In this document: in pieces, positions 12,648-38,142 of the stretch
Layout: the number at the start of each line of letters is the position of its first letter
Position numbering within the stretch: the stretch's first letter is position 1
Assembly (NCBI GenBank): GCA_038234075.1
Contig: JBBSUV010000001.1
Span: forward strand, 93,925 to 157,924
DNA from: Flavobacteriales bacterium
GTDB lineage: Bacteria; Bacteroidota; Bacteroidia; Flavobacteriales_F; PHOS-HE28
DNA: 64,000 nucleotides
Direction of reading: 5' to 3'
Program-made: the position numbers and the translations under genes
Notes under the pieces: model-generated
Seen by the model: the letters and a program-made list of their open reading frames with translations, nothing else
What the model was told of the DNA's origin: nothing
The model's database searches: none

Positions 12648-12689
12648 TCGTGTTCATCGTGGGTGTGCTGGCCGCGAAAATAGGGTCAC

Positions 12690-13836: not shown

Positions 13837-14456
13837 TGGAGAACCTCAAAGCCGAGCATCTCGGCAGCGGTCGCGAGGCAGCGCACTGGCCCAAGCCGAA
13901 CCTGCCTGAGTACGCTTTCATCGGACGAAGCAATGTGGGCAAGAGCTCATTGATCAACATGCTCGTCGGCATCCATCGCCTTGCTCGGGTGAGCACCACA
14001 CCGGGCCGCACGCGCAACGTGGAGCATTTCCGCGTGGAGCCTGTGAAGGGTAAAGGCCAAGCTTGGATGCTGGCTGACCTGCCCGGGTACGGCTTCGCAA
14101 AAACGAGCAAAGCGGAGCGCGCTCTTTGGTTGGAAATGATCCGCACCTACTTGCGTGAGCGCGAGAACCTACAATGTGTCTTCCTGCTCGTCGACGTCCG
14201 TCACGACCCCCAGCAGAACGACCTGGACATGATCCAGTGGCTCGGCGACGAACAGATCTCCTTCGTCATCCTTTTCACCAAAAGCGACAAGCTGAAACAG
14301 CCGTCCATCGTCAGCAATATCGCGCTGTTCAAGAGGACCTTGAAGAAAACCTGGGACACATTGCCGCACCTGATCATCACCTCTTCAGAGGATGGGAAAG
14401 GGCGGGATGAGGTGCTCTCCTTCATCCTGGACGTGAATTCGCGCTGGGGCGCTTAG
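13836..14456 (+). CDS. engB: Ribosome biogenesis GTP-binding protein YihA/EngB
   Basis: GRSNVGKSSLIN G1 motif, EngB family. The start overlaps the hydrolase stop (TAATG). Confidence 0.85.
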   Translation: MENLKAEHLGSGREAAHWPKPNLPEYAFIGRSNVGKSSLINMLVGIHRLARVSTTPGRTRNVEHFRVEPVKGKGQAWMLADLPGYGFAKTSKAERALWLEMIRTYLRERENLQCVFLLVDVRHDPQQNDLDMIQWLGDEQISFVILFTKSDKLKQPSIVSNIALFKRTLKKTWDTLPHLIITSSEDGKGRDEVLSFILDVNSRWGA

Positions 14457-14468
14457 TTGTCAATTTTC

Positions 14469-14623
14469 AGTTGTCCGTTCTTAGTTGTCCGTTGTCATGC
14501 GGGCGCAGAGTCCTTTATTCTTGGCTCGTGCATTTGGCCCCATGGGCCACGGAGCTGCGAAGCCGAAACCTGCGACGGATCGGCCAAGGGCCCTGACAAC
14601 GGACAACTAAGAACGGACAACTA
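14469..14623. repeat. 155-bp element bounded by 29-bp perfect inverted repeats (MITE-like or large hairpin)
   Basis: agttgtccgttcttagttgtccgttgtca at 14469-14497 is the exact reverse complement of 14595-14623. Each arm is two tandem AGTTGTCCGTT units. The 97-bp GC-rich core contains the cccatggg palindrome. The element lies between convergent engB and gldC. Confidence 0.7.
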
Positions 14624-14953
14624 CTTATTCTTCAACTCCGGCAACATGTGCTCGGCGAAGTAGGCCGCGAAATCACGCATCTGCGCCGCCATCTTGTCCT
14701 CGTTGGTGGCCCGCTCGAAGGTGTCGGCCAGTGTCAGGATGTTCTGGTGGAAGAAGGCCTTCATTTCGTCGGTGGTCATATCCTTCGTCCACAGGTCGAT
14801 GCGCATGGTGTTGAGCTCCTCGGCATCCCAAAAGCTGAGCAGCATGGCCTTGCTCACGCCTTGGTTATCCCCGTCCTCGGCCTTCCATTCGATATTCTCG
14901 GGAACGTGGTTCTCATCCATGTGGAGCCGGATGGTGATGTCGGTTTCTTTCAT
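14621..14953 (-). CDS. gldC: Gliding motility protein GldC
   Basis: About 110 aa with LWTKDMTTDEM and ADTFERAT motifs recalled from Flavobacterium GldC. Sits immediately downstream of gldB as in the known gldBC operon. The start was taken at MKETDITIRL. Confidence 0.65.
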   Translation of the reverse strand: MKETDITIRLHMDENHVPENIEWKAEDGDNQGVSKAMLLSFWDAEELNTMRIDLWTKDMTTDEMKAFFHQNILTLADTFERATNEDKMAAQMRDFAAYFAEHMLPELKNK

Positions 14954-15065
14954 GTTCAATGCAGTGAATGGTGGCTGGTGACCGGTGATTGGTGGCGGCT
15001 GGTAATAGGTGGTAAGTGAGAGTGCCGTGCATATCCGATCACCTATCACTAGTCGCCTATCACCA
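14954..15065. repeat. Imperfect inverted repeat of GGTGAT(A/T)GG units in the gldB-gldC spacer
   Basis: ggtgattggtggcggctggtaataggtgg ... cacctatcactagtcgcctatcaccactacc. The motif is related to repeats at 34790-34835. Confidence 0.4.
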
Positions 15066-16073
15066 CTACCTGGGTTTATAGGTTTTCAAGATCGCTTGCG
15101 GGTCGTGCATCGCGAATATCTCTGCAAAGGTGGCCTTCGGGTTGGCATTCATATAGCTCGTCACCATCCGGTAGCCGATCCATTCGCCGATGTGGCCGGG
15201 GCTTTCGCGCGGGAAGCCCGGCGTGAACGGGCCGTCGTTCATGAAGCGGTCGATCTCCTTGGGATCCTTGCTGTACAGCAGTTCCTTGCTCACGATCTCC
15301 CGCCACACATTGAATTCGTTGTCCTCGCACCACTTCAACTGCTTGGGCGTGAACGCGAACTTCAATGTCGCATCGGTCCCCGGTAACAAGGCATCCAACA
15401 GGGCCATCACTTTTCCGATGACCACAAAATTCGTCAGCAGGTTCTCATCGCGGACATCCCGTGTGTAGTGGACCTGCAGCCATCCCTTCACTACGCTGGG
15501 GACCAGCATTTCCGGACGCATGCGCTCCTTGCGGTACTGCGGGAACACATCCGGCGACAGGTACTTCACCACGGGACTGTCCTTGCCGACGAACCATTCC
15601 ACACCAAAGCCCAGTACGCTGTCCGTAGGCAGTACGCCGTAATTGAAGCCGGAGTTGAACGCAATGATGCGCGGCGTGAGACTATCCGGGAAATACTCCT
15701 TCAGGTGCCCGAACGCCTCATTGAACTCGGCCTCCTGCTTGTTCATATCTCCCAGTATGCTATCCGCCGAACGCTGGACTTTGCTCCAGTCGGGATCATG
15801 CACAAAGCGGGAAAGGGCCATCGGCAAACGCGGATCATTGTACGGCGCCGCTTGAAGGACACGTTCCACGTACAGCTTGTAGAACTCACCGTATTCAGCG
15901 TACAGTCGCAGGTTAAAGTTCCCTGCCGTGTCATCGACCGTTCGGAACAGGTCCTGGTCCAACCGCTCGATCTTGAGGTGCACCTGAGCCGACCGGGGAA
16001 TGTCCTCATGGCTCTGGCCTCCTCCACAAGAGAGAAGGGACAGGAGAACAAAACACCCCATGGTGCTGTTCAT
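15066..16073 (-). CDS. gldB: Gliding motility lipoprotein GldB
   Basis: Lipoprotein signal (LLSLLSCGGG). C-terminal GWIGYRMVTSYMNAN...KTYKPR matches the remembered F. johnsoniae GldB C-terminus. Adjacent to gldC. Confidence 0.75.
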   Translation of the reverse strand: MNSTMGCFVLLSLLSCGGGQSHEDIPRSAQVHLKIERLDQDLFRTVDDTAGNFNLRLYAEYGEFYKLYVERVLQAAPYNDPRLPMALSRFVHDPDWSKVQRSADSILGDMNKQEAEFNEAFGHLKEYFPDSLTPRIIAFNSGFNYGVLPTDSVLGFGVEWFVGKDSPVVKYLSPDVFPQYRKERMRPEMLVPSVVKGWLQVHYTRDVRDENLLTNFVVIGKVMALLDALLPGTDATLKFAFTPKQLKWCEDNEFNVWREIVSKELLYSKDPKEIDRFMNDGPFTPGFPRESPGHIGEWIGYRMVTSYMNANPKATFAEIFAMHDPQAILKTYKPR

Positions 16074-16090
16074 GTAACTCACCTCGATCT

Positions 16091-16098
16091 TACCTTTG
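16091..16098 (+). promoter_or_regulatory. Candidate Bacteroidota sigmaA -7 element (TAccTTTG)
   Basis: TACCTTTG matches the TAnnTTTG consensus, 27 bp upstream of the ATG of the beta-barrel OMP gene. Confidence 0.3.
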
Positions 16099-16125
16099 TC
16101 CATCATTCAACCAGCCCGCAAACCT

Positions 16126-16845
16126 ATGAAGAAGGTCTACGTGACGTTACTCGCCCTATTGCTCGGGGCTCCCAGCATTTTTGCACAGAGCGAGAACTCG
16201 AACGCGGTGCGCTTGGGCATCAAGTTCGCACCGAACCTGGCTTGGATCCGATCGGACACCAAAGGTCTGGAAAGCGATGGGACCTTGATCGGATACAGCT
16301 TTGGCCTCATGACGGAATTCCCGTTCGGGTCCAACGGCAACTACCGCTTTGCAACAGGGCTTTTCCTGAACAACGTCGGTGGCAAGATCAAGCAGACGTA
16401 TTCCTCCGCTCCGGATACGACAGGCCTCACGACCGATATTTTGAGGACATCGACAGTTAAGCTGCGATACATCGAATTACCGGTCACCATGAAGTTGATG
16501 ACCAATGAGATCGGATACATGCGTTACTACGGCCAACTTGGTGTTGACCTCGGCGCGAACATCCGTGCAAAGTCCAATGCCGAAACGATCATGACCTCGG
16601 GTGGGGCCTCTCGCCCTACAACGGAATCTGATATCGACGTGAAAGAGTCGGTGAATGTCTTCAAGGCCGGATTGGTGGTCGGTGCAGGCTTGGAATACAA
16701 CTTCAGCGGTAGAACATCCGCAGTGGTCGGAGTCACTTATCACAGCGGCTTCACCAAACTCTACAAGAAGTCCACATTCACAGGTCTGGACAATGCGAAG
16801 TCTTACGCGGACTACATCGAATTGACGGTGGGAGTCTACTTTTGA
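16126..16845 (+). CDS. Outer-membrane beta-barrel (porin/OmpA-like beta-barrel domain) protein
   Basis: Signal peptide MKKVYVTLLALLLGAPSIFAQ, alternating amphipathic beta-strands, C-terminal aromatic residue (…VGVYF). Confidence 0.6.
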   Translation: MKKVYVTLLALLLGAPSIFAQSENSNAVRLGIKFAPNLAWIRSDTKGLESDGTLIGYSFGLMTEFPFGSNGNYRFATGLFLNNVGGKIKQTYSSAPDTTGLTTDILRTSTVKLRYIELPVTMKLMTNEIGYMRYYGQLGVDLGANIRAKSNAETIMTSGGASRPTTESDIDVKESVNVFKAGLVVGAGLEYNFSGRTSAVVGVTYHSGFTKLYKKSTFTGLDNAKSYADYIELTVGVYF

Positions 16846-16864
16846 TCAAGGTTGACCGGCTAAA

Positions 16865-16908
16865 AGCCCCGTGCCTCTCCACAAGCTGAGGTACGGGGCT
16901 TTTCTTTG
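16865..16908 (+). terminator. Rho-independent terminator
   Basis: GC-rich stem agccccgtgcctc / gaggtacggggct with one G-U pair, followed by tttctttg. Confidence 0.6.
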
Positions 16909-16946
16909 CACATCGCCTTCGCCCCATGCGCTTCGGCGGACCAAGT

Positions 16947-17747
16947 ATGCTGAACGCGGAACGCACGATCGACCACATCACGGACTGGCTTCGTGAATAC
17001 TGCTCGGCCAACAAGCAGCGCGGCTTCGTCATCGGCATCAGCGGCGGCATCGATAGTGCCGTTACCAGTGCACTTTGTGCGCGCACGGGTTTCCCATTGC
17101 TCTGCGTGGAAATGCCGATCCATCAGGCGGAGGGCCAGGTCCAGCAGGCGCTAGACCACATCGCATGGCTGCGCGAACGGTATCCGACGGTCTCCCTGGA
17201 ACACGTGCAGCTCACACCTGTGTTCGATGCCTTGGTGAAGGAACTACGCTCGCATGAGGATACGGCAGCGCTCAACCTCGCGCTCGCTAACACCCGCGCC
17301 CGTTTACGCATGACAACGCTCTACTACTTCGCCGGCGTTGAGCGCTTCCTGGTCGCAGGAACGGGCAACAAGGTGGAGGACTTCGGCGTGGGCTTTTACA
17401 CCAAGTATGGTGATGGTGGCGTGGACCTCTCGCCCATCGCCGACCTCAACAAAACAGAAGTTTTCGCTTTAGCGAAGGAGCTCGGCATCATCGAAAGCAT
17501 CCAGCAGGCCAAGCCCACCGACGGCCTCTTCGGCGACGACCGCAGCGACGAGGACCAACTGGGCGCCAGTTATCCGGAGCTGGAATGGGCCATGGGCTTG
17601 CGCGATGCGGGCACTGCGGTGAATGCGGATGAACTCACCGAAAGGCAGCGTGACGTGCTCAAGATCTACGACCGGTTGCACGCCGCAAATGCGCACAAAT
17701 GGCGGCCGATACCGGTTTGTGTGATACCGCAGGAGTTGCGGAAGTAG
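16947..17747 (+). CDS. nadE: NH3-dependent NAD+ synthetase
   Basis: GISGGIDSAV PP-loop motif, NadE family. The alternative start at 16926 cannot be excluded. Confidence 0.85.
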   Translation: MLNAERTIDHITDWLREYCSANKQRGFVIGISGGIDSAVTSALCARTGFPLLCVEMPIHQAEGQVQQALDHIAWLRERYPTVSLEHVQLTPVFDALVKELRSHEDTAALNLALANTRARLRMTTLYYFAGVERFLVAGTGNKVEDFGVGFYTKYGDGGVDLSPIADLNKTEVFALAKELGIIESIQQAKPTDGLFGDDRSDEDQLGASYPELEWAMGLRDAGTAVNADELTERQRDVLKIYDRLHAANAHKWRPIPVCVIPQELRK

Positions 17748-17750
17748 CGC

Positions 17751-18785
17751 TTACTTGATCGTCCAAACATTCTCCCCGCGCAGCAGCGCATCGAGATCCC
17801 CGGGGCCTTTCTTCTGCTTGGCCAAGGCCATTTGGGCATTCATCTTCGTCTCGTGCGTGTGACGGTCGCTGACGAAGAGCACGCCGAATGGCCGCGGTAG
17901 GGCGCCTACCTCACGCGGGTCATCGAAGAGGCGTACGAGAATGCTGCCTTTGAAGGTGTCACGCTCGTCATGTATCCAGAGGTCATCCACGGAAGCTTCG
18001 CCTAATGAAAGGTCCACCACGACGGGTGTCATCCCGTCGAGCTTGATGCCCTTGGTACCATTGCTGAAGAGCAGGGGCTTGTCGTGTTCCACAAAAACGG
18101 TGTGCTCTGCTTTGCTTGCTTTCTCCGTGAAGATCTCGAAGGCGCCGTCGTTGAAGACGTTGCAGTTCTGGTAGATCTCCAGCAGGCTGGTGCCGCGATG
18201 GGCATCGGCACGCAGTAGCATCTCACGCAGGTGCTTCGGGTCGCGGTCCATGCCCCGTGCGATGAAGGTGGCATCGGCGCCCTTGCACAAAGCGAGCGGA
18301 TTGAACGGATGGTCGGTGCTGCCCATCGGCGAACTCTTCGAGATCAGACCCTCCGGTGAGGTAGGCGAATATTGCCCTTTGGTGAGGCCGTAGATCTCGT
18401 TGTTGAAGAGCAGCACGTTGAGGTCCACGTTGCGGCGCAGCAGGTGGATGAGGTGGTTGCCACCGATGCTGAGCGAATCGCCGTCGCCGGTGATCACCCA
18501 CACGCTGAGGTCGGGCTGCACGCTGCGCATGCCGCTGGCGATCGCTGGGGCGCGCCCGTGGATGCTGTGCATACCGAACGTGTCGAGGTAGTAAGGGAAA
18601 CGGGAAGAGCAGCCGATGCCGCTGATGAAGACGATCTCCTCCTTCGGGCGGCCGTGCTGCGAAAGCACGCTCTCCACCTGTTTCAATATGGAATAATCGC
18701 CGCAGCCGGGGCACCAGCGCACTTGCTGGTCACTGCTGTAATCGATCTTCTTCGGCGCCGGGGCAGCAGGTTGGATCGTGCTCAT
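17751..18785 (-). CDS. korB: 2-oxoacid(2-oxoglutarate):ferredoxin oxidoreductase beta subunit (TPP-binding)
   Basis: WCPGCGD Fe-S/TPP region and GDG TPP motif. The start overlaps the korA stop (ATGA). The long N-terminal extension in the ORF track was rejected. Confidence 0.8.
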   Translation of the reverse strand: MSTIQPAAPAPKKIDYSSDQQVRWCPGCGDYSILKQVESVLSQHGRPKEEIVFISGIGCSSRFPYYLDTFGMHSIHGRAPAIASGMRSVQPDLSVWVITGDGDSLSIGGNHLIHLLRRNVDLNVLLFNNEIYGLTKGQYSPTSPEGLISKSSPMGSTDHPFNPLALCKGADATFIARGMDRDPKHLREMLLRADAHRGTSLLEIYQNCNVFNDGAFEIFTEKASKAEHTVFVEHDKPLLFSNGTKGIKLDGMTPVVVDLSLGEASVDDLWIHDERDTFKGSILVRLFDDPREVGALPRPFGVLFVSDRHTHETKMNAQMALAKQKKGPGDLDALLRGENVWTIK

Positions 18786-20668: not shown

Positions 20669-20774
20669 AGGTACGGGGGGGCGAAATGGTACATAGTTGA
20701 GCTTTGTCAGGGCTGGATCCTCACCACCTCAACCTTCAGTCTTTATCTTTGGGAAACGAACCTATCAGGTTGAA

Positions 20775-21005
20775 ATGGATTGGCACGACCATATAAGCTC
20801 CGACCCGAAGATCATGTTGGGTAAGCCCTGTTTTCGAGGCACACGTATCCCTGTATACCTGATCTTGCAGAAGATCGCGTTCGGAGAGCACTTGGAAGAT
20901 CTCTTAGCCGGCTATCCCGGCCTTACGAAGGAGAGCATCAAAGCCGCTCAGCTTTTCGCCGTTGACGCGGTCAACAACGACATTGTCTACCCGGCGTTGC
21001 CTTGA
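20775..21005 (+). CDS. DUF433 domain protein (putative antitoxin-like)
   Basis: MDWHDHISSDPKIMLGKPCFRGTRIPVY is typical of DUF433. Followed by a DUF5615 gene with overlapping stop/start. Confidence 0.65.
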   Translation: MDWHDHISSDPKIMLGKPCFRGTRIPVYLILQKIAFGEHLEDLLAGYPGLTKESIKAAQLFAVDAVNNDIVYPALP

Positions 21006-21370
21006 AGCAAGTTGCCATGGAGTTCGTTGCGGATGAATGTGTGGACGGCCATATCTTAAGGGCATTGCGTTCCGCAGGTCATATCGTGCGTGACATCCAT
21101 GAGACAGATCCCGGGGCATCCGATGAGCAGGTGCTTAGGATCGCTCATTCAGGGGCTACGATCTTGATCACGGAGGATAAGGACTTCGGGGATCTAGTGT
21201 TCGCTAGCAAATCTCAACATTCCGGCATCTTATTGATCCGATTGGACGGGTTCTCGCCGCCTGACAAAGTTGCACGCGTGATGATGGCACTTGGCCACCA
21301 CATCAATGAATTACAAGGCGCCTTCACCGTGATAGACAAGAACAAAGTGCGGATAAGGAAACATTCATGA
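21002..21370 (+). CDS. DUF5615 (PIN-like) domain protein, putative toxin partner of DUF433
   Basis: Conserved DUF433-DUF5615 gene pair with overlapping reading frames. Confidence 0.55.
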   Translation: MKQVAMEFVADECVDGHILRALRSAGHIVRDIHETDPGASDEQVLRIAHSGATILITEDKDFGDLVFASKSQHSGILLIRLDGFSPPDKVARVMMALGHHINELQGAFTVIDKNKVRIRKHS

Positions 21371-21487
21371 TCGCGATATGACTCCCGCATCGTGGTCACA
21401 TTTTTTTGTGATCGACCTCTTGAATTGATCATCACAAGCTCATTCCCGTCCTTGCCACTTACTTTGTTCGCGCACTGAGCCCCGATC

Positions 21488-22324: not shown

Positions 22325-22776
22325 TGCGTGCGGTGGTACAGCGGGTGTCCGAGGCAGCTGTGCGTATCGCGGGGAACGAGACCGCGAGGATCGGCAAAGG
22401 CTACTTGGTGTTGCTCGGCATCGAGGTGGACGACACGGCCGAGGAACTCGAATGGACCTGTGGAAAGGTGGCACGCATGCGGCTCTTCCCGGACCTCGAC
22501 GGGGTGATGAATCTTGACCTGAACGAGGCTCAAGGCGAATTGCTCTTGGTGAGCCAATTCACGCTTCAGGCCAGCACGCGAAAGGGCAACCGGCCCAGCT
22601 ACATCCGTGCAGCTCGTCCTGAAGAAGCCATCCCGCTCTACCTGCGCGCGAAGCAATTGTTCAGTGTAATGGTGCAAGGGCGTGTGAAGACCGGCGAGTT
22701 CGGCGCGGACATGCAGATCTCCTTGGTGAACGATGGCCCGGTGACCATTGTGATCGACAGTCGCCTGAAGGAATAA
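22324..22776 (+). CDS. dtd: D-aminoacyl-tRNA deacylase
   Basis: MRAVVQRV N-terminus and SQFTL/NDGPVT motifs. The start overlaps the preceding stop (TGATG). Confidence 0.85.
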   Translation: MRAVVQRVSEAAVRIAGNETARIGKGYLVLLGIEVDDTAEELEWTCGKVARMRLFPDLDGVMNLDLNEAQGELLLVSQFTLQASTRKGNRPSYIRAARPEEAIPLYLRAKQLFSVMVQGRVKTGEFGADMQISLVNDGPVTIVIDSRLKE

Positions 22777-22781
22777 GGACC

Positions 22782-23129: not shown

Positions 23130-23134
23130 CTCCT

Positions 23135-25158: not shown

Positions 25159-25306
25159 GGGGTGGCGAAGGTAGAAGGATGGAGTTGATGTCATATATCC
25201 TTGAACCCTACCCGGTCACCGTTGTCGCAGCATCGGTGCCGAGCGGACATTACCTTCGCCTCCTTGTTTCCACCCGTTCCAGCGGAGCCAACCCCTTTCT
25301 TCTTGC

Positions 25307-26434
25307 ATGAAGCCCATCCAGATGGTCGATCTTGTCGGCCAATACGAAAAGATCAAACCCGAAGTGGATGCCGCTTTGTTGGATGTGATCGCGGGTGCGG
25401 CATTCATCAATGGCCCGGAAGTGAAGGCCTTCGAAAAGGAACTGGCAGCCTACCTTGGAGTGAAGCATGTGATCCCTTGCGGCAATGGTACAGACGCCCT
25501 ACAAGTGGCCATGATGGCCTTGGGGCTGAAGCCGGGCGATGAGGTGATCACCGCCTCGTTCACCTTCGTGGCCACGGTGGAAGTGCTGGCGCTGCTCGGC
25601 CTCGTGCCCGTCTTTGCCGATGTGTTCCCCGGAACCTTCAACATGGACCCCGCCGATGTGGCGCGCAAAGTGACCCCGAAGACCAAGGCCATCGTGCCCG
25701 TGCATCTCTTCGGTCAATCCGCTGACATGGACGCGATGATGGCGATCGCCAGGGAATACAAGTTGCACGTGGTGGAGGACGCCTGCCAGTCCATCGGCTC
25801 GGACCACAGCGGTGCGAACGGCAAACGCAAGTCCGGCGCCATCGGCGACATCGGCGTCACCAGCTTCTTCCCCAGCAAGAACCTCGGCTGCTACGGGGAC
25901 GGTGGCGCACTCTTCACGAACGATGATGAACTGGCGCACAAGATCCGCCGCGTATGCAACCACGGCAGCGATGAACGCTACTACCATGAAGTGGTGGGCG
26001 TGAATAGCCGATTGGATTCATTGCAAGCGGCCGTGTTGCGGATCAAACTGCGGCACCTCAACGAATACGCCAAGGCGCGCAGTGTTGCCGCTGCAGCCTA
26101 TGACAATGCATTCTCCGGGATCGAAGGCGTCAGCGTTCCTGAACGCAGTTCCTTCAGTACCCACGTCTTTCACCAATACACCCTTCGGATCGCCAAGGGT
26201 CGGCGGGATGAGCTGAAAAAGCACCTGGAAGCGGCTGGCGTGCCGGCGATGGTCTACTATCCCGTGCCGTGCCATCTACAGAACGCGTACAAGAGCGAGC
26301 GCTTCCCTGCCGGATCACTGCCGGTGACGGAATCACTGATCACGGAAGTGATCTCACTCCCCATGAGCACCGAACTGGACAACGATCAACTCACCCACAT
26401 CACCACAGCGGTGAAGAGCTTCTTCAACGCATAA
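25307..26434 (+). CDS. DegT/DnrJ/EryC1/StrS family PLP-dependent sugar aminotransferase
   Basis: Fold-type I aminotransferase of the WecE/ArnB class (GNGTDAL motif, SFF.SKNL lysine region). Confidence 0.85.
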   Translation: MKPIQMVDLVGQYEKIKPEVDAALLDVIAGAAFINGPEVKAFEKELAAYLGVKHVIPCGNGTDALQVAMMALGLKPGDEVITASFTFVATVEVLALLGLVPVFADVFPGTFNMDPADVARKVTPKTKAIVPVHLFGQSADMDAMMAIAREYKLHVVEDACQSIGSDHSGANGKRKSGAIGDIGVTSFFPSKNLGCYGDGGALFTNDDELAHKIRRVCNHGSDERYYHEVVGVNSRLDSLQAAVLRIKLRHLNEYAKARSVAAAAYDNAFSGIEGVSVPERSSFSTHVFHQYTLRIAKGRRDELKKHLEAAGVPAMVYYPVPCHLQNAYKSERFPAGSLPVTESLITEVISLPMSTELDNDQLTHITTAVKSFFNA

Positions 26435-26495
26435 CAAGATCCCCAGCGAGAGGATGAGCGCGCCGATGTAAGGGCGCGAGATCTCGCGCCCCAAC

Positions 26496-27827
26496 ATGAA
26501 CATAGCAGTAGTAGGAACTGGATACGTAGGCCTGGTAACGGGCACTTGCTTCGCCGAGACCGGCAACAACGTGATATGCGTCGACATCGACAAGGAGAAG
26601 GTGCAGAAGCTGAAGGACGGGAAGGTCCCGATCTATGAGCCCCATCTGGACGTGCTGTTCGAGCGCAACATCCGCCAAGGCCGCTTGGTCTTCACCACGG
26701 ATCTGAAGGAGGCTGTCGACAAAGCGCAGATCATCTTCTTGGCCCTTCCCACGCCTCCCGGCGAGGACGGCAGCGCCGACCTGAAGTATGTGCTGGGCGT
26801 GGCAGATGACCTGGGCAAGATCATCACCGACTACAAGGTGATCGTGGACAAGAGCACGGTTCCCGTAGGCACTGCCGAAAAGGTGCGTGCAGCCGTGGCC
26901 AAGCATGCCAAGGTCCCCTTCGATGTGGTGAGCAACCCGGAATTCCTGCGGGAAGGTTTCGCAGTGGACGACTTCCTGAAACCGGACCGGGTGGTGGTGG
27001 GCACCAGCAGCGCGCGTGCACAGAAGGTGATGGAGGACCTCTACAAGCCTTTCGTGCGGCAGGGCAACCCCATCATCTTCATGGATGAGCGCAGCGCCGA
27101 ACTCACGAAGTACGCGGCCAACGCCTTCCTCGCGGCCAAGATCACCTTCATGAACGAGATCGCGAACTTCTGCGAGGCTGTGGGCGCGGACGTGGACAAG
27201 GTGCGCATCGGCATCGGAAGCGACAGCCGGATCGGCAAGCGCTTCCTCTTCCCCGGGATCGGCTACGGCGGCTCTTGCTTCCCCAAGGACGTACAGGCTT
27301 TGGCCAAGAGCGGGAAGGACGCCGGCTATCAGTTCCAGATCATCGATAGCGTGATGAAGGTGAACGAGCGCCAGAAGACCACGCTCACGGACAAGGTGAA
27401 GGCGCACTACGGTGAGGACCTGCGCGGAAAGCATTTCGCGCTTTGGGGCCTGGCTTTCAAGCCGGACACGGACGATATCCGCGAAGCTCCGGCGCTTTAC
27501 ATGATCGATGCGCTCCTGGAGGCAGGCGCCACGGTCACCACCTTCGACCCCGAGGCCATGGACAACGTCCGGAAGCTGATCGGTGACAAGGTGACTTATG
27601 CCAATGACGAATACGCGGCGCTTGAGGGTGCCGATGCGCTGATCATCGCTACGGAATGGGCGCTGTTCCGCACGCCCGACATGGCCCGCGTGGAAAAAGC
27701 CCTGAAGGAAAAGATCATCTTCGATGGCCGCAATCTCTACGACCTCGACGAGATGAAGGATCTCGGCTACCACTACGTGAGCGTAGGGCGGCAGCCGGTG
27801 AACGCACCCATCAAAATGAAAGCCTGA
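26496..27827 (+). CDS. ugd: UDP-glucose 6-dehydrogenase
   Basis: [12 protein letters not shown] Rossmann N-terminus, catalytic GGSCFPKD motif. Confidence 0.9.
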
Positions 27828-27828
27828 A

Positions 27829-28920
27829 ATGGTGAAGAAGAGCACCGCAAAACCTGCAAAGGTCAAAGCATCGCCACAGAGTACTAAGCCTGCGGCAAAG
27901 CGGGGACGGATGAGCGTGGTGAAGCCTGCCGAGAAAGAGCGCGTGCTGATCACCGGGGCTGCGGGTTTTCTGGGCTCCCATCTGTGCGACCGGTTCTTGA
28001 AGGAGGGGTATCACGTGATCGCGATGGACAACCTGATCACCGGCCGCCTGAAGAACATCGAGCACCTGTTCAAGCGGAGCGATTTCGAATTCTACCATCA
28101 CGACGTTTCCAAGTTCGTGCATGTGCCCGGCAAGCTCAAGTACATCATGCACTTCGCCTCGCCCGCAAGCCCGATCGACTACCTGAAGATCCCCATCCAG
28201 ACGCTGAAAGTGAGTTCCTTGGGCACACACAATCTGCTCGGACTTGCCCTGCAGAAAAAGGCGCGCATCCTGGTGGCCAGCACCAGCGAGGTATACGGAG
28301 ACCCACAGGTGCATCCACAGACAGAGAGCTATTGGGGCCACGTGAACACCGTGGGTCCACGCGGCGTGTACGACGAGGCCAAGCGTTTCCAGGAGGCCAT
28401 CACCATGGCCTATCACACCTATCATGGATTGGAGACGCGCATCGTGCGGATCTTCAACACCTACGGCCCACGCATGCGCCTCAACGACGGCCGGGTGCTA
28501 CCGGCATTCATCGGTCAAGCGCTTCGCGGTGAAGACCTCACCATCTTCGGCAAGGGCAACCAAACGCGCAGCTTCTGCTATGTGAGCGACCTGATCGAAG
28601 GCATCTACCGTCTGCTGAAGAGCGATTGCTCAGACCCCGTGAACATCGGCAACCCGGCGGAGATCACCATCAAGCAGTTCGCCCAGGAGATCGTGAAGCT
28701 GACCGGAACCAAGCAGAAGCTGGTCTACAAGCCGCTTCCACAGGACGATCCCATGCAGCGCCAGCCGGACATCACCTTGGCCAAGAAGCTGCTGAAGTGG
28801 CAACCGAAGATCTCCCGCGCCGAAGGCTTGAAGATCACCTACGCTTATTTCAAGGGCCTTTCAGCTGCGGAACTCCACGAGAAGGACCACAATTCCTTCG
28901 AGGGATACGTGCGAAAGTGA
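27829..28920 (+). CDS. UDP-glucuronate decarboxylase (UDP-xylose synthase, SDR family) with Lys/Ala/Pro-rich N-terminal extension
   Basis: [12 protein letters not shown] Rossmann motif, YxxxK motif, UXS-like conservation. Translationally coupled to ugd (2-bp gap). Confidence 0.8.
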
Positions 28921-29040
28921 GGGTTTAGTTGATAGGTGTTGCAGCGTTGTCTTCGCTCGTGACTGATCTGGCGAGTGTGGACCATTCCTCACGGGTGAAA
29001 GGCATCCGCGCCGAATTTGAGGATTGCTTAACTTTACCTG

Positions 29041-29496
29041 ATGCAGACGTTCGATATACGGTTCGACCCGGCATTGGCCACTTCCGCGTTAATGCGCTCG
29101 CTCGAAGGTGTCCATCTGCAACGTGGTGACCATGTATGCGTATCGACTTTGTACAAACCTTCCCAAGCGGAACTTTACACATTACTCCTTGTCATTGCCA
29201 ACTCGATCGCCAAGGGCATGGATGCGCGGAAGGAAAGAGACGGCGCCCGGGCAAAAGGCGAGTATTTGCTGAAGGACTTACTCTCCCAATATGGCAACGC
29301 CGAAGATCTCGAACGCGGCCTTGAACGCGAATATGGCGTGGAGATCACCGTTGTGACAAGGGATACGGAAGATTCGGATTGGCTGGCCCTGTCGTCAAAA
29401 GGGGCAGAAGCGGCCTATGGCGAGAACGAACCGGACTATTCCAATACTGAAGTCCGTGAACCCAACCCGTACTACCGCAAGCACGCCAGCGAATGA
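29041..29496 (+). CDS. Hypothetical protein, putative non-canonical antitoxin partner of the downstream PemK/MazF toxin
   Basis: ORF overlaps the toxin start (ATGA) in a local GC dip (about 52%, visual estimate). No recognisable antitoxin fold. The true start is uncertain (internal Mets at aa 18 and 60). Confidence 0.35.
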   Translation: MQTFDIRFDPALATSALMRSLEGVHLQRGDHVCVSTLYKPSQAELYTLLLVIANSIAKGMDARKERDGARAKGEYLLKDLLSQYGNAEDLERGLEREYGVEITVVTRDTEDSDWLALSSKGAEAAYGENEPDYSNTEVREPNPYYRKHASE

Positions 29497-29837
29497 TCGC
29501 AGGGAGCATCATTCTGCTGGACTTCGTTCAATCGAACGGGGTCGTGAAGAAGCGGCCAGCACTTGTGGTTGCCATATTACCGCGTTTCAGCGACCTCCTG
29601 CTAGCCGGTATCAGCACACAACTGCATCAAGCGATCCCACAGGTGGATATCGAGCTTCTCGACGGGCAACCTGGATTCAGGGACTCAGGCTTGAAACGAT
29701 CCAGCATTGTGAGATTGACACTATTGAGCCGGATCGAGCGCAAGGACCCAAGCATCTTTGGAACCATTGGCACCCTTGACCCTGCGCTACTGATCCGGGC
29801 GAAACGCAATTTAGCCGACCTGATCCTTCGAGCGTAG
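29493..29837 (+). CDS. PemK/MazF family toxin (type II TA endoribonuclease)
   Basis: KKRPALVVA ... GISTQL ... SIVRLT ... IGTLDPALL pattern matches PemK_toxin family members. Confidence 0.65.
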   Translation: MIAGSIILLDFVQSNGVVKKRPALVVAILPRFSDLLLAGISTQLHQAIPQVDIELLDGQPGFRDSGLKRSSIVRLTLLSRIERKDPSIFGTIGTLDPALLIRAKRNLADLILRA

Positions 29838-29851
29838 GGTACGGATCCGAA

Positions 29852-30790
29852 GTGACCGCTACGACCAATTTAAGCCCTGAACAAATCCTTATCAAAGTGA
29901 AGATGGACCACCCATCTCCGGCAGTGATCCGCGTTTGTGGCGTGCCCGAACCGTTCAATCTGCCGTGGCGGCTAGGCGTTGAGAGTGGCGCATTCCTTCT
30001 TGAAGGCATCGACCTGCAATGGCGGGATGTGCCCGAAGGCACGGGAGCCATGTGCCAGTTGTTGCAGAACGGAGCCACGGACCTGGCCGTGCTGGTGACC
30101 GAAGGTGCGGTGCGCGATGTGCTGGTCAGCAGCGGAAATTCCGTCGTGGCCACCTTGGTGGATTCACCGCTCCGATGGGGAGTACATGTGGGTTCAGGCA
30201 CCGATCTACAAACCCCGGCCGATCTGGTGGGCGTGCCTTTCGCTATCAGCCGCTTCAACAGTGGAAGCCACCTGATGGCCATGGTCTATGCAAAGCGCTT
30301 AGGCTGGACACCGAAGGAAAAGGACTTCATCGTGGTACACGACCTGGACGGCGCAGTGGCTCTGCTGAAAAGCCCGAGACCGGCAGTGTTCCTGTGGGAG
30401 CAGGCCATGACCGCCGCATTCGTGGAAGCTGGCGCACTGCGCATGGTGGACGTTATGGAAGCGTCATGGCCCGCCTTCACGGTGGTGGCCCGGAAGGAAT
30501 TCCATCACCGCCATCCGCAGGAAGTGGAGCGGGTGTTACGCATCGTCCGCGAACAGGCCAAGGCATTCACGGCCGGTCAGGGAGCTGCCGAGCAGGTGAC
30601 CACGCGTTATGGCCTGCCAGCAACCGAGGCCAGGCGTTGGTTTGCGGCCGTTCGCTGGAACACGGATGGCCGGATCGACCTTCCGTCCTTATCCCTTGCC
30701 GCACGGACGTTGGCCGAAGCGGGAATGCTGACGGGGGCACCACCGGAGGATCTCTGGGGGGATCGGCTCAAGGGAAGCGCCAATTCTTAA
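29852..30790 (+). CDS. NMT1/THI5-like (periplasmic-binding-protein fold) substrate-binding protein, cytoplasmic
   Basis: SsuA/NMT1-like layout with no signal peptide. Weak recollection-based assignment. Confidence 0.35.
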   Translation: MTATTNLSPEQILIKVKMDHPSPAVIRVCGVPEPFNLPWRLGVESGAFLLEGIDLQWRDVPEGTGAMCQLLQNGATDLAVLVTEGAVRDVLVSSGNSVVATLVDSPLRWGVHVGSGTDLQTPADLVGVPFAISRFNSGSHLMAMVYAKRLGWTPKEKDFIVVHDLDGAVALLKSPRPAVFLWEQAMTAAFVEAGALRMVDVMEASWPAFTVVARKEFHHRHPQEVERVLRIVREQAKAFTAGQGAAEQVTTRYGLPATEARRWFAAVRWNTDGRIDLPSLSLAARTLAEAGMLTGAPPEDLWGDRLKGSANS

Positions 30791-30812
30791 AGCCCATACC
30801 GGCACGGGACGA

Positions 30813-31652
30813 TCACAATTGTTTGACCAATCGGCCGCTCACTAGGAACCTGCCATTCACCGACAGGTTCAGGATGTAGGCCCCCGCAGGCAGTTCATGA
30901 ACATCCAGTTGCATCCCGTTTAACTCGTTCGCATTCACGACCATGCGCTTCAAGGTCCGACCCTGCAGATCGGTGATCGATATCTCAATCACCCCGGAGA
31001 GCCAACCTTCCACACCTGTCATTTGCACCGTGACCTGATCGGACGAGGGAACAGGCCGGACCAACAAGTTGATCTGTTGTTCCAAGTTCTCCGATATGCC
31101 AACAGGGATCGAATGAAAAGTGCCGCATTCGACCGCACCCTTATTGAAATAAGTCAGATCAACACTCTGCCATTGATTGGTCTGGTCGCTGTATGTGTGT
31201 GAATAGGGACCTCCGCAACCTTGAACAAACCGACTATATCCATAGTTAGGTCCCAAGTCGTCACCTGTTCCAATTTCCCAAACGGCCATACCACACATTC
31301 CGGGGTTGACGTAGAGTGTGTCGTACTGCATCTCCCACTGCCAGGCAGGCTCGTCAAGTGAGAAGTAGGTCGTCGAGATGACCTGATCTGAAAAGCCGGG
31401 GGGGAGTCCGGGGCCGCTGGGAGGGGTGTAGGTTAAGCGATGTATTCCATAATTCACCGTATCACCAGCGGGAGAATCGGTCCTTTCCAAGATGGTCGCC
31501 GTTATCGTGGTAGGAGGACCATTACTATAAGTGGTCGTAGATTGAAATACATCCCCCACCTCGAAGTCATATACCTCGCCCGTGGTAAGCCCTTGGCCCA
31601 GCGCAAACTGGGCGAAAAACAGGAACAGGATAAGGATCCAATACCGGTTCAT
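30813..31652 (-). CDS. T9SS C-terminal-sorting-domain secreted protein
   Basis: Signal peptide MNRYWILILFLFFAQFALGQG. C-terminal about 80 aa matches the Por/T9SS CTD (…AGAYILNLSVNGRFLVSGRLVKQ). Confidence 0.65.
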   Translation of the reverse strand: MNRYWILILFLFFAQFALGQGLTTGEVYDFEVGDVFQSTTTYSNGPPTTITATILERTDSPAGDTVNYGIHRLTYTPPSGPGLPPGFSDQVISTTYFSLDEPAWQWEMQYDTLYVNPGMCGMAVWEIGTGDDLGPNYGYSRFVQGCGGPYSHTYSDQTNQWQSVDLTYFNKGAVECGTFHSIPVGISENLEQQINLLVRPVPSSDQVTVQMTGVEGWLSGVIEISITDLQGRTLKRMVVNANELNGMQLDVHELPAGAYILNLSVNGRFLVSGRLVKQL

Positions 31653-31812
31653 GATGTGTAATGTACGGAATACTTCACCCACTCCATCGGGGCCCGTTCT
31701 TGCACGCTCCCCCCTTGATCCCGGCAACTGCCCAAAAACGCCGTGCCATCGGTACATTCGCAGCCCCTAAAGCAGCTTGTCCGACCTTCCGGCCCTGCCC
31801 CTCTTTGCCCCC

Positions 31813-32385
31813 ATGGAATACACCGCCCACCCCACCGCCGTTATCGACGAGGGTTGCACCATCGGTGAGGGCACCCGCATCTGGCACTTCAGCCACATCA
31901 TGCCGGGCTGCGTGATCGGCAAGGGATGCAACATCGGCCAGAATGTGGTGGTGAGCCCGGATGTGAAACTGGGCGACAACGTGAAGGTGCAGAACAACGT
32001 GAGCATTTACACCGGGGTGGAATGCGAGGACGACGTCTTCCTTGGCCCTTCCTGCGTATTCACCAACGTGATCAATCCGCGCAGTGCGGTGAACCGGCGC
32101 GGGGAATACCTGCGGACGCTGGTAAAGAAAGGCGCTACGATCGGAGCCAATGCCACCATCGTCTGCGGACATGACATCGGCCGCTTCGCCTTTATCGCGG
32201 CAGGTGCTGTGGTGACCAAGGAAGTGCCCGACCATGCTTTGGTGATGGGAAACCCGGCGCGCAGAACAGGTTGGATGAGCGAGCATGGTCACAAGTTGGC
32301 ATTTGACGCCAGTGGATCTGCCACCTGCCCCGAAAGCGGCCAGCACTACGAATTGAAGAACGATAAAGTCACCCGCACCGCATGA
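31813..32385 (+). CDS. Hexapeptide-repeat sugar N-acetyltransferase (WbpD-like)
   Basis: Left-handed beta-helix hexapeptide repeats ([18 protein letters not shown], …). Located next to WbpB/WbpA-like genes. Confidence 0.7.
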
Positions 32386-33416
32386 GATCCCCCGAAGACA
32401 AGGTGAAGTTCGCCGTGATCGGATGTGGCCACATCGGCAAGCGCCATGCGGAAATGATCTCGCGCAACCCGGAGAGCGAACTGGTGGCCCTGTGTGATGT
32501 GAAGCCCAAGGAAGCCCTGGGCATTGACATCTATGACGTGCCATTCTTCACCGACGCTGAGACGATGCTTGCTGCGGTCCCTGATGTGGACGTGGTGAGC
32601 GTCTGCACGCCGAACGGACTGCATACCCGGTTCAGCCTGATCGCTTTGGAAAATGGCAAGCACGTGGTGTGCGAGAAGCCCATGGGTCTCACCAAGGCCA
32701 GTTGCGAGGCCGTGCTCTACAAGGCCCTTCAAAAGCACCGTCATGTGTTCGGCGTGATGCAGAACCGCTACAGCCCGCCGAGCGAGTGGATCAAGGAAAT
32801 GGTGGAGCAAAAACGTCTAGGCGATATTTTCCTGGTACAGGTGAACTGCTACTGGAACCGCGACGAACGCTACTATAAGAAGGATGGCTGGAAAGGCACG
32901 GCCGACCTCGACGGAGGCACCCTGTTCACCCAGTTCAGCCACTTTATCGACATCATGTACTGGCTCTTCGGCGACATCACCGACATCCAGGGCCGCTTCG
33001 CCGACTTCAACCACAAGGACCTGACCGCCTTCGAGGACAGCGGCTTGGTGAACTTCCGCTTCTTGGATGGTGGGATCGGCTGCATCAACTATTCCACCAG
33101 CGTTTGGGACAAGAATCTGGAAAGCAGCATCACGGTGATCGGCAGCAAAGGCAGCATCAAGATCGGCGGACAGTACATGGACCAAGTGGAAGTGTGCCAT
33201 GTGCAGGACTACACCATGCCCGTGCTGGCACCGACCAATCCAGCGAACGACTACGGCGCGTACAAGGGCAGCGCCAGCAACCACCACTACATCATCGAGA
33301 ACGTGGTGGATACCTTGAAACAGAGAAAAAGCATGACCACCAATGCCTTGGAAGGCATGAAGGTGATCGACATCATTGAACGCATTTACCAGAAGAGGGA
33401 TGAGCGACCTGTATGA
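32382..33416 (+). CDS. Gfo/Idh/MocA family oxidoreductase (WbpB-like UDP-sugar 3-dehydrogenase)
   Basis: [13 protein letters not shown] Rossmann N-terminus, EKP motif. Confidence 0.75.
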
Positions 33417-34698
33417 GCGATTGAAGCGGAAGGAGGCCAAGATGGCCGTGATCGGATTGGGCTATGTGGGCCTTCCCATCGCCTTGGCCTTCGCACGGAA
33501 GATCAAAGTGGTGGGCTTCGACATCAATGAGAAGCGCGTGGACATGATGCGCCGCGGCGAGGACCCCAGCGATGAGCTGTTGCCAGAGGATTTCAAGGGC
33601 GCGGATATCCTCTTCACCGCCGACATTGAGGACCTGAAGGACGTGGAGTTCTTCATCGTGGCTGTGCCCACGCCGATCGACCAGCAGAACATCCCCGATC
33701 TCACTCCGCTTTTGGGCGCCACGCGCACCGTGGGCCAAGTGCTGAAGAAGGGCGACCATGTGGTGTATGAGAGCACCGTTTATCCCGGCTGCACCGAGGA
33801 GGATTGCGTGCCGCTGCTGGAGCAGCTGAGTGGATTGAAATTCGTCACCGACTTCAAGGTGGGCTATTCGCCGGAGCGGATCAATCCGGGCGACAAAGTG
33901 CATACGCTGGAGAGCATCGTGAAAGTGACAAGCGGCTGCGACGCGGAAAGCGCCGAGACCGTGGCCAAGATGTACGAGCTGGTGGTGAAGGCTGGCGTGC
34001 ATCGCGCGCCCAGCATCAAGGTGGCGGAAGCCTCCAAGATCATCGAGAACACCCAGCGCGACGTCAACATCGCGCTGACGAACGAGCTTTCCATCATTTT
34101 CAACCGCATCGGCATCAACACGTTCGACGTGCTGGAGGCCGCTGGCACCAAGTGGAATTTCCTCAAGTTCCAGCCCGGTCTGGTGGGAGGCCACTGCATC
34201 GGCGTGGACCCTTACTACCTCGTTTTCAAAGCCAAGGAACTAGGCTACCACGCGCAGATCATCGACAGTGGCCGCTTCGTGAACGACAGCATGGGCGGCT
34301 ACGTGGCCAAGCAGACGGTGAAAAAGGTGATCGCCTCCGGAACCAACCCCGCCGATGCGCGCGTGCTGGTGATGGGCGCCACCTTCAAGGAGAACGTCAC
34401 CGACATCCGCAACAGCAAGGTGGCCGACGTGGTGAAGGAGCTCAAGAGCTTCAGCTGCCAAGTGGACGTTGCTGATCCGCATGCCGACTCCGATCATGTA
34501 AAACACGAGTACGGCTATGCACTGACGGCGGAGATGAAAGGCCCGTACGACGCGATCATTGTTGCCGTGAACCATGCGGAATATGCCGACAAGGACGAAG
34601 CCTGGTTCAAGAGCATGTTAAAACCGAAAGGCGTGCTGGTGGATCTGAAGGGAACCTATCGCAAAAAGGTGAAGGACCTGAATTACTGGAGCTTGTGA
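33400..34698 (+). CDS. Nucleotide-sugar dehydrogenase (UDP-N-acetyl-D-glucosamine/mannosamine 6-dehydrogenase, WbpA/WecC-like)
   Basis: MAVIGLGYVGLP motif, UDPG/MGDP dehydrogenase family. The start was chosen at MSDLYE… and M23 (33442) is also possible. Confidence 0.8.
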   Translation: MSDLYERLKRKEAKMAVIGLGYVGLPIALAFARKIKVVGFDINEKRVDMMRRGEDPSDELLPEDFKGADILFTADIEDLKDVEFFIVAVPTPIDQQNIPDLTPLLGATRTVGQVLKKGDHVVYESTVYPGCTEEDCVPLLEQLSGLKFVTDFKVGYSPERINPGDKVHTLESIVKVTSGCDAESAETVAKMYELVVKAGVHRAPSIKVAEASKIIENTQRDVNIALTNELSIIFNRIGINTFDVLEAAGTKWNFLKFQPGLVGGHCIGVDPYYLVFKAKELGYHAQIIDSGRFVNDSMGGYVAKQTVKKVIASGTNPADARVLVMGATFKENVTDIRNSKVADVVKELKSFSCQVDVADPHADSDHVKHEYGYALTAEMKGPYDAIIVAVNHAEYADKDEAWFKSMLKPKGVLVDLKGTYRKKVKDLNYWSL

Positions 34699-34737
34699 GT
34701 AGTTTCACAACAGAGGCAGAGGGAGCACAGAGGCGGA

Positions 34738-34835
34738 GTTGTCAGTTGTTCGTTGTCGGTTGTCAGGCTGCCGATGGCCGCAGTGGCAGTGCGTAGTCGC
34801 CTAATCACTAATCACCAACTACCTATCACCAAGAA
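34738..34835. repeat. Intergenic GTTGTC-triplet and ATCAC/CTATCACC repeat block
   Basis: gttgtcagttgttcgttgtcggttgtcagg followed by tagtcgcctaatcactaatcaccaactacctatcacc. Shares 11-mer agtcgcctat/a with 15042-15055 and the GTTGTC motif with 14455-14497. Confidence 0.45.
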
Positions 34836-34878
34836 AGCCTTCGTACCCTTCGTGCCTCTGTGGTGAACCAACGATAAC

Positions 34879-36683: not shown

Positions 36684-36689
36684 GCGGGT

Positions 36690-37853: not shown

Positions 37854-37865
37854 GCGTGCCGAATA

Positions 37866-38103: not shown

Positions 38104-38142
38104 ACATCACGTAAGGCCCGAGAGCCTGATAATGCAGCTGGA

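Follow-up and report, generated by a model that had tools for sequence, protein, structure and literature searches.

Using word counts, tandem-repeat detection, fold prediction and comparison with related genomes, our analysis of a 64,000-nucleotide window of contig JBBSUV010000001.1 from a Flavobacteriales bacterium (positions 93,925 to 157,924; 58.6% G+C) identifies the GTTGTC and GGTGATAGG words near its gliding and polysaccharide genes as pieces of short tandem 7-base arrays that fill three intergenic gaps. The three array-bearing spacers lie between engB and gldC (14454-14623), between gldB and gldC (14954-15065), and between a WbpA-like dehydrogenase gene and rfbB (34699-34878). The arrays are tandem with a 7-nucleotide (nt) period and confined to spacers; orthologous copies differ by whole units, and distant relatives swap the word or have no array at all. 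Their identity as arrays of heptameric simple sequence repeats (SSRs) is, in our judgement, very likely. On balance we favor the view that they are intergenic heptanucleotide repeats of the type described as short tandemly repeated repetitive (STRR) sequences, that is, slippage-generated extragenic palindromes with fast turnover that are either tolerated or used as RNA hairpins; the hairpin role itself, a prediction from folding, we put forward only tentatively.

The identification is carried by periodicity and not by word frequency. Counted over the window, GTTGTC is not enriched (37 copies against 30.4 +/- 5.7 expected), so that the word as such, to whose recurrence an earlier, sequence-only reading of this stretch had drawn attention, does not exceed chance; likewise, the three copies of CTATCACC (1.07 expected) fall in the chance range, and the seven of the ATCACNNATCAC word pair (4.2 expected) are not significant alone. 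Ten of the 37 GTTGTC copies, however, are head-to-tail 7-nt units within two spacers, and GTTGTCNGTTGTC, with up to one mismatch allowed, has five matches against 0.24 expected, all inside two spacers, a number that none of 100 shuffles attains. Tandem Repeats Finder (TRF) reports period 7 or 14 at 14452-14497, 14595-14621, 14964-14994, 34737-34766 and 34801-34815, and every array of at least three units in the window lies within the three spacers, each bounded by Pfam-supported genes. Two unit families are present, AGTTGTC (complement GACAACT, or CAACTGA in the other register) and GGTGATA (complement TATCACC), the second supported by TRF periodicity, by conservation in orthologs and by a 10-mer, TAGTCGCCTA, common to 15050-15059 and 34794-34803 (two copies against 0.00 expected), whose two surroundings differ essentially by one additional 7-nt unit. 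The sequence-only reading had described this word as an 11-mer; it does occur twice, as a 10-mer a few bases from where it had been placed. The corresponding GGTGATNN / NNATCACC heptamers occupy 14964-15065 and 34794-34831.

Across 248 kb of clade DNA, TRF found 20 period-7 and two period-14 arrays of at least 2.9 copies, against about 0.2 in a Markov control and 1-4 arrays for each of the other periods, in a sample enriched for junctions picked for study that therefore gives no unbiased genome-wide rate. Rfam yielded no match at the gathering score in the whole window, and a permissive search of 14300-15200 returned chance-level matches only (E >= 0.4).

Three array-bearing spacers and their orthologs

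Regions from related metagenome-assembled genomes (MAGs) were retrieved through GldB and RfbB homologues, the closest of which all come from MAGs labelled Flavobacteriales bacterium, and more distant relatives were retrieved from metagenomes through a GldC alignment. One locus, L001, is an independent assembly of the source organism and is identical to the window; the closer relatives at engB|gldC are L002, L003, L005 and L007 (GldB 80-87% identical), and the distant set for the same junction includes L138 and L141-L148 (GldC 70-75% identical). Gene order around the elements is the same in all relatives examined. The genes that concern us here are all supported by Pfam, which backs the names they had received from sequence alone:

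13809-14456, plus strand: engB
14621-14953, minus strand: gldC
15066-16106, minus strand: gldB
25307-26434, plus strand: DegT gene
26496-27827, plus strand: UDP-glucose dehydrogenase gene
27829-28920, plus strand: UXS-like epimerase gene
33376-34698, plus strand: WbpA-like dehydrogenase gene
34879-35934, plus strand: rfbB

Between the convergent engB and gldC, the element consists of two mirrored arms around a core:

14454-14497, plus strand: left arm of GTTGTCN heptamers (TRF period 14/7, consensus CTTAGTTGTCCGTT), with orthologous arrays in L002, L003, L005 and L007
14498-14593, no strand assigned: core, 96 nt between the arms
14594-14623, minus strand: right arm, a mirrored GTTGTCN array (GACAACN on the plus strand)

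The mirrored GTTGTC tracts seen after engB in the sequence-only reading are thus confirmed, at 14456-14496 on the plus and 14595-14621 on the minus strand. The engB stop codon (TAG, 14454-14456) lies inside the first unit of the left arm and the gldC stop (CTA on the plus strand, 14621-14623) inside the last unit of the right arm, while 14469-14497 and 14594-14622 form a 29-nt inverted repeat that is 100% complementary across the intervening 96 nt. The predicted folds of the element reach -98.4 and -100.6 kcal/mol on the two strands (z-scores of -7.4 and -8.9). All four orthologous spacers of the closer relatives likewise hold inverted GTTGTCN arrays with the TAG stops of both genes in the first units, and in the window and these relatives predicted stems close the entire 136-246-nt spacer (z -3.0 to -8.5). 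Arm lengths and unit numbers differ among the window, L002, L003 and L007, and a variant unit in one arm has its mirror image in the other (GTTCTTA in the window, G(G/T)TGCCG in L003). Among the relatives at the GldC 70-75% level, the inverted arrays are made of different heptamers (AGTCGTG, AGTCGTT, CTGGCTN and GCAGGRG), and in three of these relatives the gldC|engB spacer measures just 1-27 nt.

The 96-nt core is homologous to those of L002 and L007, which share an orientation, but is reversed relative to gldC and engB: aligned with the L002 core it gives 75/98 matches when flipped and 58 in the same orientation. Mis-assembly is unlikely because the independent assembly of the organism matches the window exactly. 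The inversion leads us to posit that the arms recombined, or served a template switch, in the lineage of the window, which also fits the observation that they are perfectly complementary here and imperfectly so elsewhere. Between 14300 and 15200 we found no terminator-like site, and no T run follows either arm; a sigma-70 scan, uninformative for Bacteroidota promoters, gave one weak promoter-like match inside an arm. Two points of the sequence-only reading stand: these sequences are not promoters, and they are located at gene boundaries.

The spacer between gldB and gldC, two genes read from the minus strand, is built from the second unit family:

15036-15065, minus (sense) strand: G-rich 5' arm, GGTGATAGGCGACTAGTGATAGGTGATC, beginning 1 nt past the gldB stop and holding TAGTCGCCTA
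14960-15019, minus (sense) strand: A/C-rich 3' arm, TTACCACCTATTACCAGCCGCCACCAATCACCGGTCACCAGCCACCATTCAC, with a period of about 7, ending about 10 nt short of the gldC ATG (14953)

This spacer measures 111-112 nt in the window and L007 and 21-24 nt in L002, L003 and L005, and even the two long versions differ in content, with GGTGATA/TATCACC arrays in the window and GTTGTC arrays in L007.

In the WbpA-like|rfbB spacer, both arrays are enclosed by an outer stem:

34699-34726, plus strand: 5' half of the outer stem, directly past the WbpA-like stop (alignment columns 4-31)
34737-34767, plus strand: GTTGTY array of 4 units, AGTTGTC AGTTGTT CGTTGTC GGTTGTC AGG
34794-34831, plus strand: A/C-rich array, TAGTCGC CTAATCA CTAATCA CCAACTA CCTATCA CC, 48 nt upstream of the rfbB ATG and containing TAGTCGCCTA
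34843-34872, plus strand: 3' half of the outer stem, ending 6 nt before the rfbB start at 34879 (alignment columns 167-196)

The trio of GTTGTC copies reported here earlier is borne out: 34738-34764 holds three exact copies plus one GTTGTT, with a TRF period of 7 and 4.3 copies. The spacer is about 180 nt long in the window, L129, L133, L153 and L154, and in these five genomes the predicted outer stem pairs the bases after the stop with those before the start; its columns are mostly invariant, with one AU<->UA exchange. Within this conserved stem the number of GTTGTY units varies (4 in the window, 5 in L129, 3 in L133 and 2 in L154), L153 has other heptamers (CAGGGTA/GAGTACT) in their place, and in L155 the whole spacer is reduced to 8 nt. 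None of the retrieved loci contains TAGTCGCCTRATCAC, the orthologs reading CAGTCGCCTGATCAC or CAGTTGCCTGATCAC; conservation of the module is therefore loose. Pairing of GUUGUC with GGUGAU through G-U wobble was considered for this spacer and rejected, the second array lying on the wrong strand (AUCACC). Separately, several close RfbB homologues (P0151-P0154, P0159, P0163 and others) are annotated as 391-393 amino acids, about 40 longer than the 351-residue protein of the window; these gene calls may run upstream through a repeat spacer.

A stem joining both end regions is predicted for each of the three spacers. Two further GTTGTC sites had been grouped with the arrays by the sequence-only reading:

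25221-25226, plus strand: single GTTGTC upstream of the DegT gene, outside any array, judged to be chance
28926-28951, plus strand: TAGTTGATAGGTGTTGCAGCGTTGTC, just past the UXS stop, a weakly 7-periodic G/T-rich stretch with one exact hexamer (28946-28951)

The hexamer upstream of DegT exists, at 25221 and not near 25262 as had been given, but it stands alone and is not conserved: the aligned position reads GTTGTG in L129, and there is none in L133, L134, L132 or L007. The copy after UXS is real as well, yet it is a lone hexamer compatible with chance and has no counterpart in L129, L130, L132 or L134, where gene content downstream of UXS varies; 28926-28951 is at most a decayed array and otherwise chance. 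Apart from this site, the region downstream of UXS (28921-31757) has a lower G+C content at third codon positions (GC3) and a gene content that varies among L129-L134 inside an otherwise syntenic sugar-nucleotide cluster; in the window it encodes two open reading frames (ORFs) without a Pfam match, a Ca3427-like binding protein and, on the minus strand, a protein sorted by the type IX secretion system.

In relatives, similar elements also occur at junctions of unrelated genes. L003 and L005 carry a 239-nt element with GTTGTC/GACAAC arms between a hydrolase gene and engB, where the gap in the window is 0 nt and the two genes overlap; L134 has a similarly built element between epimerase and MerR genes, and L016 a compound element between two unrelated genes. 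A near-identical arm, AGTTGTCAGTTGTTCGTTGTC, is found at 34737 in the window, 12273 in L003 and 9845 in L129. Since the arrays adjoin unrelated genes (L003 hydrolase|engB, L134 epimerase|MerR) and occur in many phyla, the notion that GTTGTC/GTGATAGG marks gliding and polysaccharide blocks must be abandoned: the arrays are not tied specifically to these genes. For annotation this removes a false lead, there being no evidence for a regulator or recombination system common to the two gene sets. Nor is the orientation of the motifs inconsistent, as had been thought. On the sense strand, the array past the upstream stop is always the G/T-rich one (GTTGTC or GGTGAT), and the A/C-rich one (GACAAC or ATCACC) follows it, closer to the next gene; in two relatives an array lies shortly before a start codon, 7 nt from the engB ATG in L003 and 27 nt from the start in L016. 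The comparison of orthologous junctions thus finds arrays kept at the same places but neither the word nor the lone hexamers conserved. What stays conserved is a spacer of 7-nt-periodic arrays folding on itself, not any one word.

Known heptamer repeats and distribution in public genomes

Heptameric SSRs are over-represented in bacteria and intergenic (PMC4692102), and the arrays of the window are STRR-like heptanucleotide repeats of this known type. The closest described family is that of the TAACTGA direct repeats, known from Beggiatoaceae, Cyanobacteria and five Bacteroidetes; most are in the forward sense a short way upstream of starts, one Flexibacter array lies in reverse directly past a stop codon, and insertions and deletions proceed in 7-nt steps (PMC4679880). 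Both have a 7-nt tandem unit, CAACTGA here differing from TAACTGA by one base in the same register; both are intergenic, present in Bacteroidetes and Cyanobacteria and variable in 7-nt steps between relatives; and the polarity agrees, forward just before starts (in public arrays and in L003 and L016, though not in the window) and reverse just after stops. Public genomes even contain mixed GTTATCA/GTTGTCA arrays, the admixture of TAACTGA units being seen in other genomes alone. The differences are equally clear. The unit here is CAACTGA / TCAGTTG, and CAACTGA is rare as a repeat in the Beggiatoaceae genome that was studied (3 doublets); the window arrays follow stops and are paired in inverted order so as to close the spacer, whereas the published survey lists a single indirect repeat in its 170 sets; and GTTGTCN arrays are also found in many Acidobacteriota and Planctomycetota.

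Cyanobacterial STRR sequences, the classic example, resemble the window arrays in being tandem intergenic heptamers with many unit types per genome and a length that, at a given junction, varies from one relative to another (PMC4692102), and the GTTGTCA triplet is itself repeated in Nostoc PCC 7120, where the 20-mer ttgtcagttgtcagttgtca occurs 44 times (PMC2408588). They differ in belonging to heterocystous cyanobacteria, the host here being a GC-rich uncultured member of the Flavobacteriales with short arrays of 2-5 units. For the most part, related Xanthomonas species have their heptamer SSRs at shared gene junctions, with varying length, and inverted pairs also occur (PMC4692102); the GGGAATC arrays among them are similarly intergenic, mostly of about 4 units, and form convergent inverted pairs capable of stem-loops or cruciforms (PMC4692102). 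Their units are G-rich and G-quadruplex-capable, unlike GTTGTC and GGTGATA, and they belong to another phylum.

Repetitive extragenic palindromic (REP) sequences and the bacterial interspersed mosaic elements (BIMEs) of enterobacteria and pseudomonads likewise place imperfect palindromes past stops and between co-transcribed genes, with each site dispensable, and are thought to serve as mRNA 3' hairpins. REPs, however, share one 20-40-nt consensus linked to REP-associated tyrosine (RAYT, Y1) transposases, whereas the window arms share only a 7-nt unit, have unrelated cores and change their word between lineages. We found no RAYT link: a single Y1_Tnp gene, in L003, is present among the Pfam-scanned genes around the finding and at the related loci. 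Miniature inverted-repeat transposable elements (MITEs) have the inverted arms in common with the present elements, which differ in having no flanking duplication and interiors that change between loci. Intrinsic terminators also form stable hairpins straight after stops, symmetrically between convergent genes, but here there is no U/T tract, and a 29-bp stem with a 96-nt interior is far bigger.

A scan of public genomes for (GTTGTCN)3, taking one genome per species, returned at least 120 loci; the counts below refer to the 120 matches listed, were assigned from record titles and are not normalized by phylum. Bacteroidota account for 36, Acidobacteriota for 33, Cyanobacteria for 17, Planctomycetota for 13, Pseudomonadota for 7, Deltaproteobacteria / Thermodesulfobacteriota for 4, Chloroflexota for 3 and other groups for 7, with 0 from Bacillota, Actinomycetota or archaea and none from Beggiatoaceae; the phylum bias is only suggestive. 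These arrays comprise 3-21 units, often stand beside other heptamer arrays and are in some cases mixed with GTTATCA units. Among them, a GTTGTC array is followed by a GACAAC array in 35 cases and preceded by one in a single case, and the ATG of a long ORF lies within 60 nt downstream in 44 of 109 arrays read in the GACAAC sense against 9 of 109 in the GTTGTC sense; upstream stops show no such bias (26 vs 20). Calling the arrays coding or non-coding from stop-to-stop ORFs of at least 150 amino acids flagged 51 of 131 as inside an ORF, some of them clearly intergenic; the call was discarded because it is unreliable in GC-rich DNA and because the GTTGTC strand lacks stop codons. The scan suggests one word common to four phyla with a strict polarity toward start codons, and this polarity offers a handle on whether the translation machinery reads such repeats or one orientation is merely tolerated.

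Origin, possible role and alternative explanations

More than 30 years after STRR sequences were described, it remains puzzling what heptamer repeats do in bacteria and how they arose, and the present lineage is a compact case in which one junction shows gain, unit-wise change, word replacement, core inversion and loss. A published hypothesis on heptamer repeats holds that slippage is favored by the polymerase footprint. We suggest that replication slippage would create the arrays and drive the gain and loss of units, and that mirrored arms may be kept alike through intrastrand template switching or recombination, the same process having perhaps flipped the 96-nt core. A self-folding insert at a gene boundary would be harmless or mildly useful and might persist for that reason. 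Past the convergent engB and gldC, the 29-bp duplex could place a 3' hairpin, lacking a U-tract, on both mRNAs, where it would act as an exonuclease barrier or an RNase III-type duplex. Between co-transcribed genes, the closing stem would loop out 90-170 extra bases and hold the stop near the next start. The polarity, in turn, may stem from selection for a leader that is unstructured and poor in G ahead of start codons, on the uncertain premise that the lineages concerned rarely rely on Shine-Dalgarno pairing.

Several observations weigh against the reading of the arrays as extragenic hairpins. The element has no U-tract and no terminator-like site, while canonical terminators with a hairpin and a T-tract occur elsewhere in the window. 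The earlier idea of a boundary or terminator element nevertheless comes close to the account we favor, of extragenic hairpins directly past stop codons. In the WbpA-like|rfbB spacer, the inner GTTGTC and ATCACC arrays are not mutually complementary, and the spacer folds with a z-score of just -2.2. Across 12 co-directional spacers, sense and antisense strands fold equally well, in a comparison of low power in which both strands have the G/U-rich arm first, so that nothing points to selection acting on the transcript as opposed to the DNA palindrome. Finally, with spacers of 1-27 nt between gldC and engB in three relatives and of 8 nt before rfbB in L155, any function must be dispensable.

The recurrence of one word in distant phyla, for which slippage alone does not account, speaks for a sequence-specific alternative, namely that the arrays are binding sites of one nucleic-acid-binding protein and define a regulon, post-transcriptional or translational, to which these genes happen to belong. 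The CAACTGA strand is the sense strand 1-25 nt before starts across phyla, with the 44 vs 9 and 35:1 asymmetries described above among the matches listed, and a protein reader has been proposed for TAACTGA, one base away, with ribosomal protein S1, a cold-shock protein and a CsrA-like protein as MacGregor's candidates (PMC4679880). The window itself, however, has no GACAAC array upstream of any start, its arrays following stops or facing another stop, and no candidate binding protein is encoded beside the arrays among the Pfam-scanned genes. Relatives, moreover, use AGTCGTG, CTGGCTN, CAGGGTA and other heptamers at the same junctions, or have no spacer, and the word is therefore not under purifying selection there. 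For these junctions the shared regulator suggested in the sequence-only reading is not supported, and we consider the explanation as a whole rather unlikely. A bolder version, in which YAACTGA / TCAGTTR arrays are one cross-phylum element read by conserved expression machinery such as ribosomal protein S1, strikes us as unlikely in its turn. Were it true, S1, for example, would read these arrays when initiation proceeds without Shine-Dalgarno pairing; the A/C-rich strand would serve as a leader module just ahead of starts, with its G/U-rich complement tolerated only past stops, and the paired form would mask or unmask the leader or couple a stop to the next start.

Mobility offers a different account, in which a small non-autonomous MITE- or REP-like element, with the arrays as its terminal inverted repeats, reshuffles gene modules by serving as a recombination site. 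It would accommodate the presence/absence polymorphism at three junctions, the near-identical AGTTGTCAGTTGTTCGTTGTC arm at different loci in different genomes, the sharing of TAGTCGCCTA by two spacers of the source genome, and the core flipped between its arms. Yet the arm ends show no target-site duplications, the cores are unrelated from one locus to the next, and lengths differ in steps of 7 nt; no transposase lies nearby among the Pfam-scanned genes, and the sole Y1 transposase, in L003, has a different palindrome on its flanks. The engB|gldC element also sits in the same place in genomes with GldB 80-87% identical, and is therefore old and not a recent hop; gene order around the elements is conserved. 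Of the suggested family of recombination sites, recombination as such has one piece of support, the flipped core, and a role in modular gene exchange is not supported. We judge this account improbable. Bacteroidota commonly have promoters that invert between flanking inverted repeats, the promoter -7 box in this phylum has the consensus TAnnTTTG, and the engB|gldC element could be read as such an inverton, its 96-nt core flipping a promoter-like signal to drive antisense transcription into gldC or engB. The orientation of the core does differ between the source genome and L002/L007, and within the core a conserved TGCATTTG resembles the -7 box; this box, however, is mismatched at a conserved position and has no correctly placed -33 element, two independent assemblies of the organism agree in orientation, the Pfam-scanned genes nearby include no recombinase, and the element sits between two 3' ends with no gene there for a promoter to drive, which makes an inverton highly improbable. 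Equally remote is the idea that there is no element and that short words simply recur by chance in intergenic DNA rich in GC. It would explain the unremarkable counts of GTTGTC, CTATCACC and ATCACNNATCAC and the unconserved hexamers at 25221 and 28946, for which it stands; for the three spacers it is refuted by the tandem doublet, the 29-nt perfect inverted repeat, the two copies of TAGTCGCCTA and the arrays at orthologous junctions.

Other features of the window and related loci

Canonical termination is exemplified by a bidirectional intrinsic terminator at 16846-16925, AAAAGCCCCGT ... ACGGGGCTTTTCTTTG, between an outer membrane protein gene and nadE, with similar structures at the corresponding position in L003 and L007; the organism therefore uses canonical terminators, unlike the heptamer hairpins. 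In L003, a Y1 transposase gene at 6876-7712 (RAYT-like, with a weak PF01797 match) is flanked by the palindrome CCGTCGACTTCCAGTCGGCGG, a classical REP/RAYT layout unrelated to the heptamer arrays.

Two further repeats in the window have periods other than 7. The spacer at 39858-40008 contains a 9-nt periodic GGCGCAGAT in 3 copies (39903-39928), followed by the inverted partial copies ATCTGCC and ATCTGCG, and is thus another short-period inverted arrangement. At 51766-51920, between two plus-strand genes, an 80-nt unit is present in 1.9 tandem copies with 85% matches, each copy having two internal hairpins, for example GCATCAACGTCCACTGCGTGAAACGTTGATG. Upstream of mraZ, 12648-12801 carries direct repeats of AAAGTGGGG (CCCCACTTT on the plus strand) that are conserved in L003 (13267-13623) and L007 (13018-13375) and that we take to resemble the repeated MraZ-bound boxes of other bacteria.

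An insertion of about 2.2 kb at 36684-38930 is absent from L129-L134, where an acyltransferase gene directly follows cpsB. It encodes, on the minus strand, an AAA_14/DUF4143 ATPase (36690-37853) and an ORF without a Pfam match (38195-38650), and is flanked by two directly repeated 89-nt copies of the cpsB 3' end that are 91% identical (36595-36683 and 38015-38103). At 20697-21370 a toxin-antitoxin-like pair consists of a DUF433 gene and, after it, a DUF5615 / PIN_10 gene; it is located in an 819-nt gap of lower GC3 that a GC3-based gene call had left unannotated.

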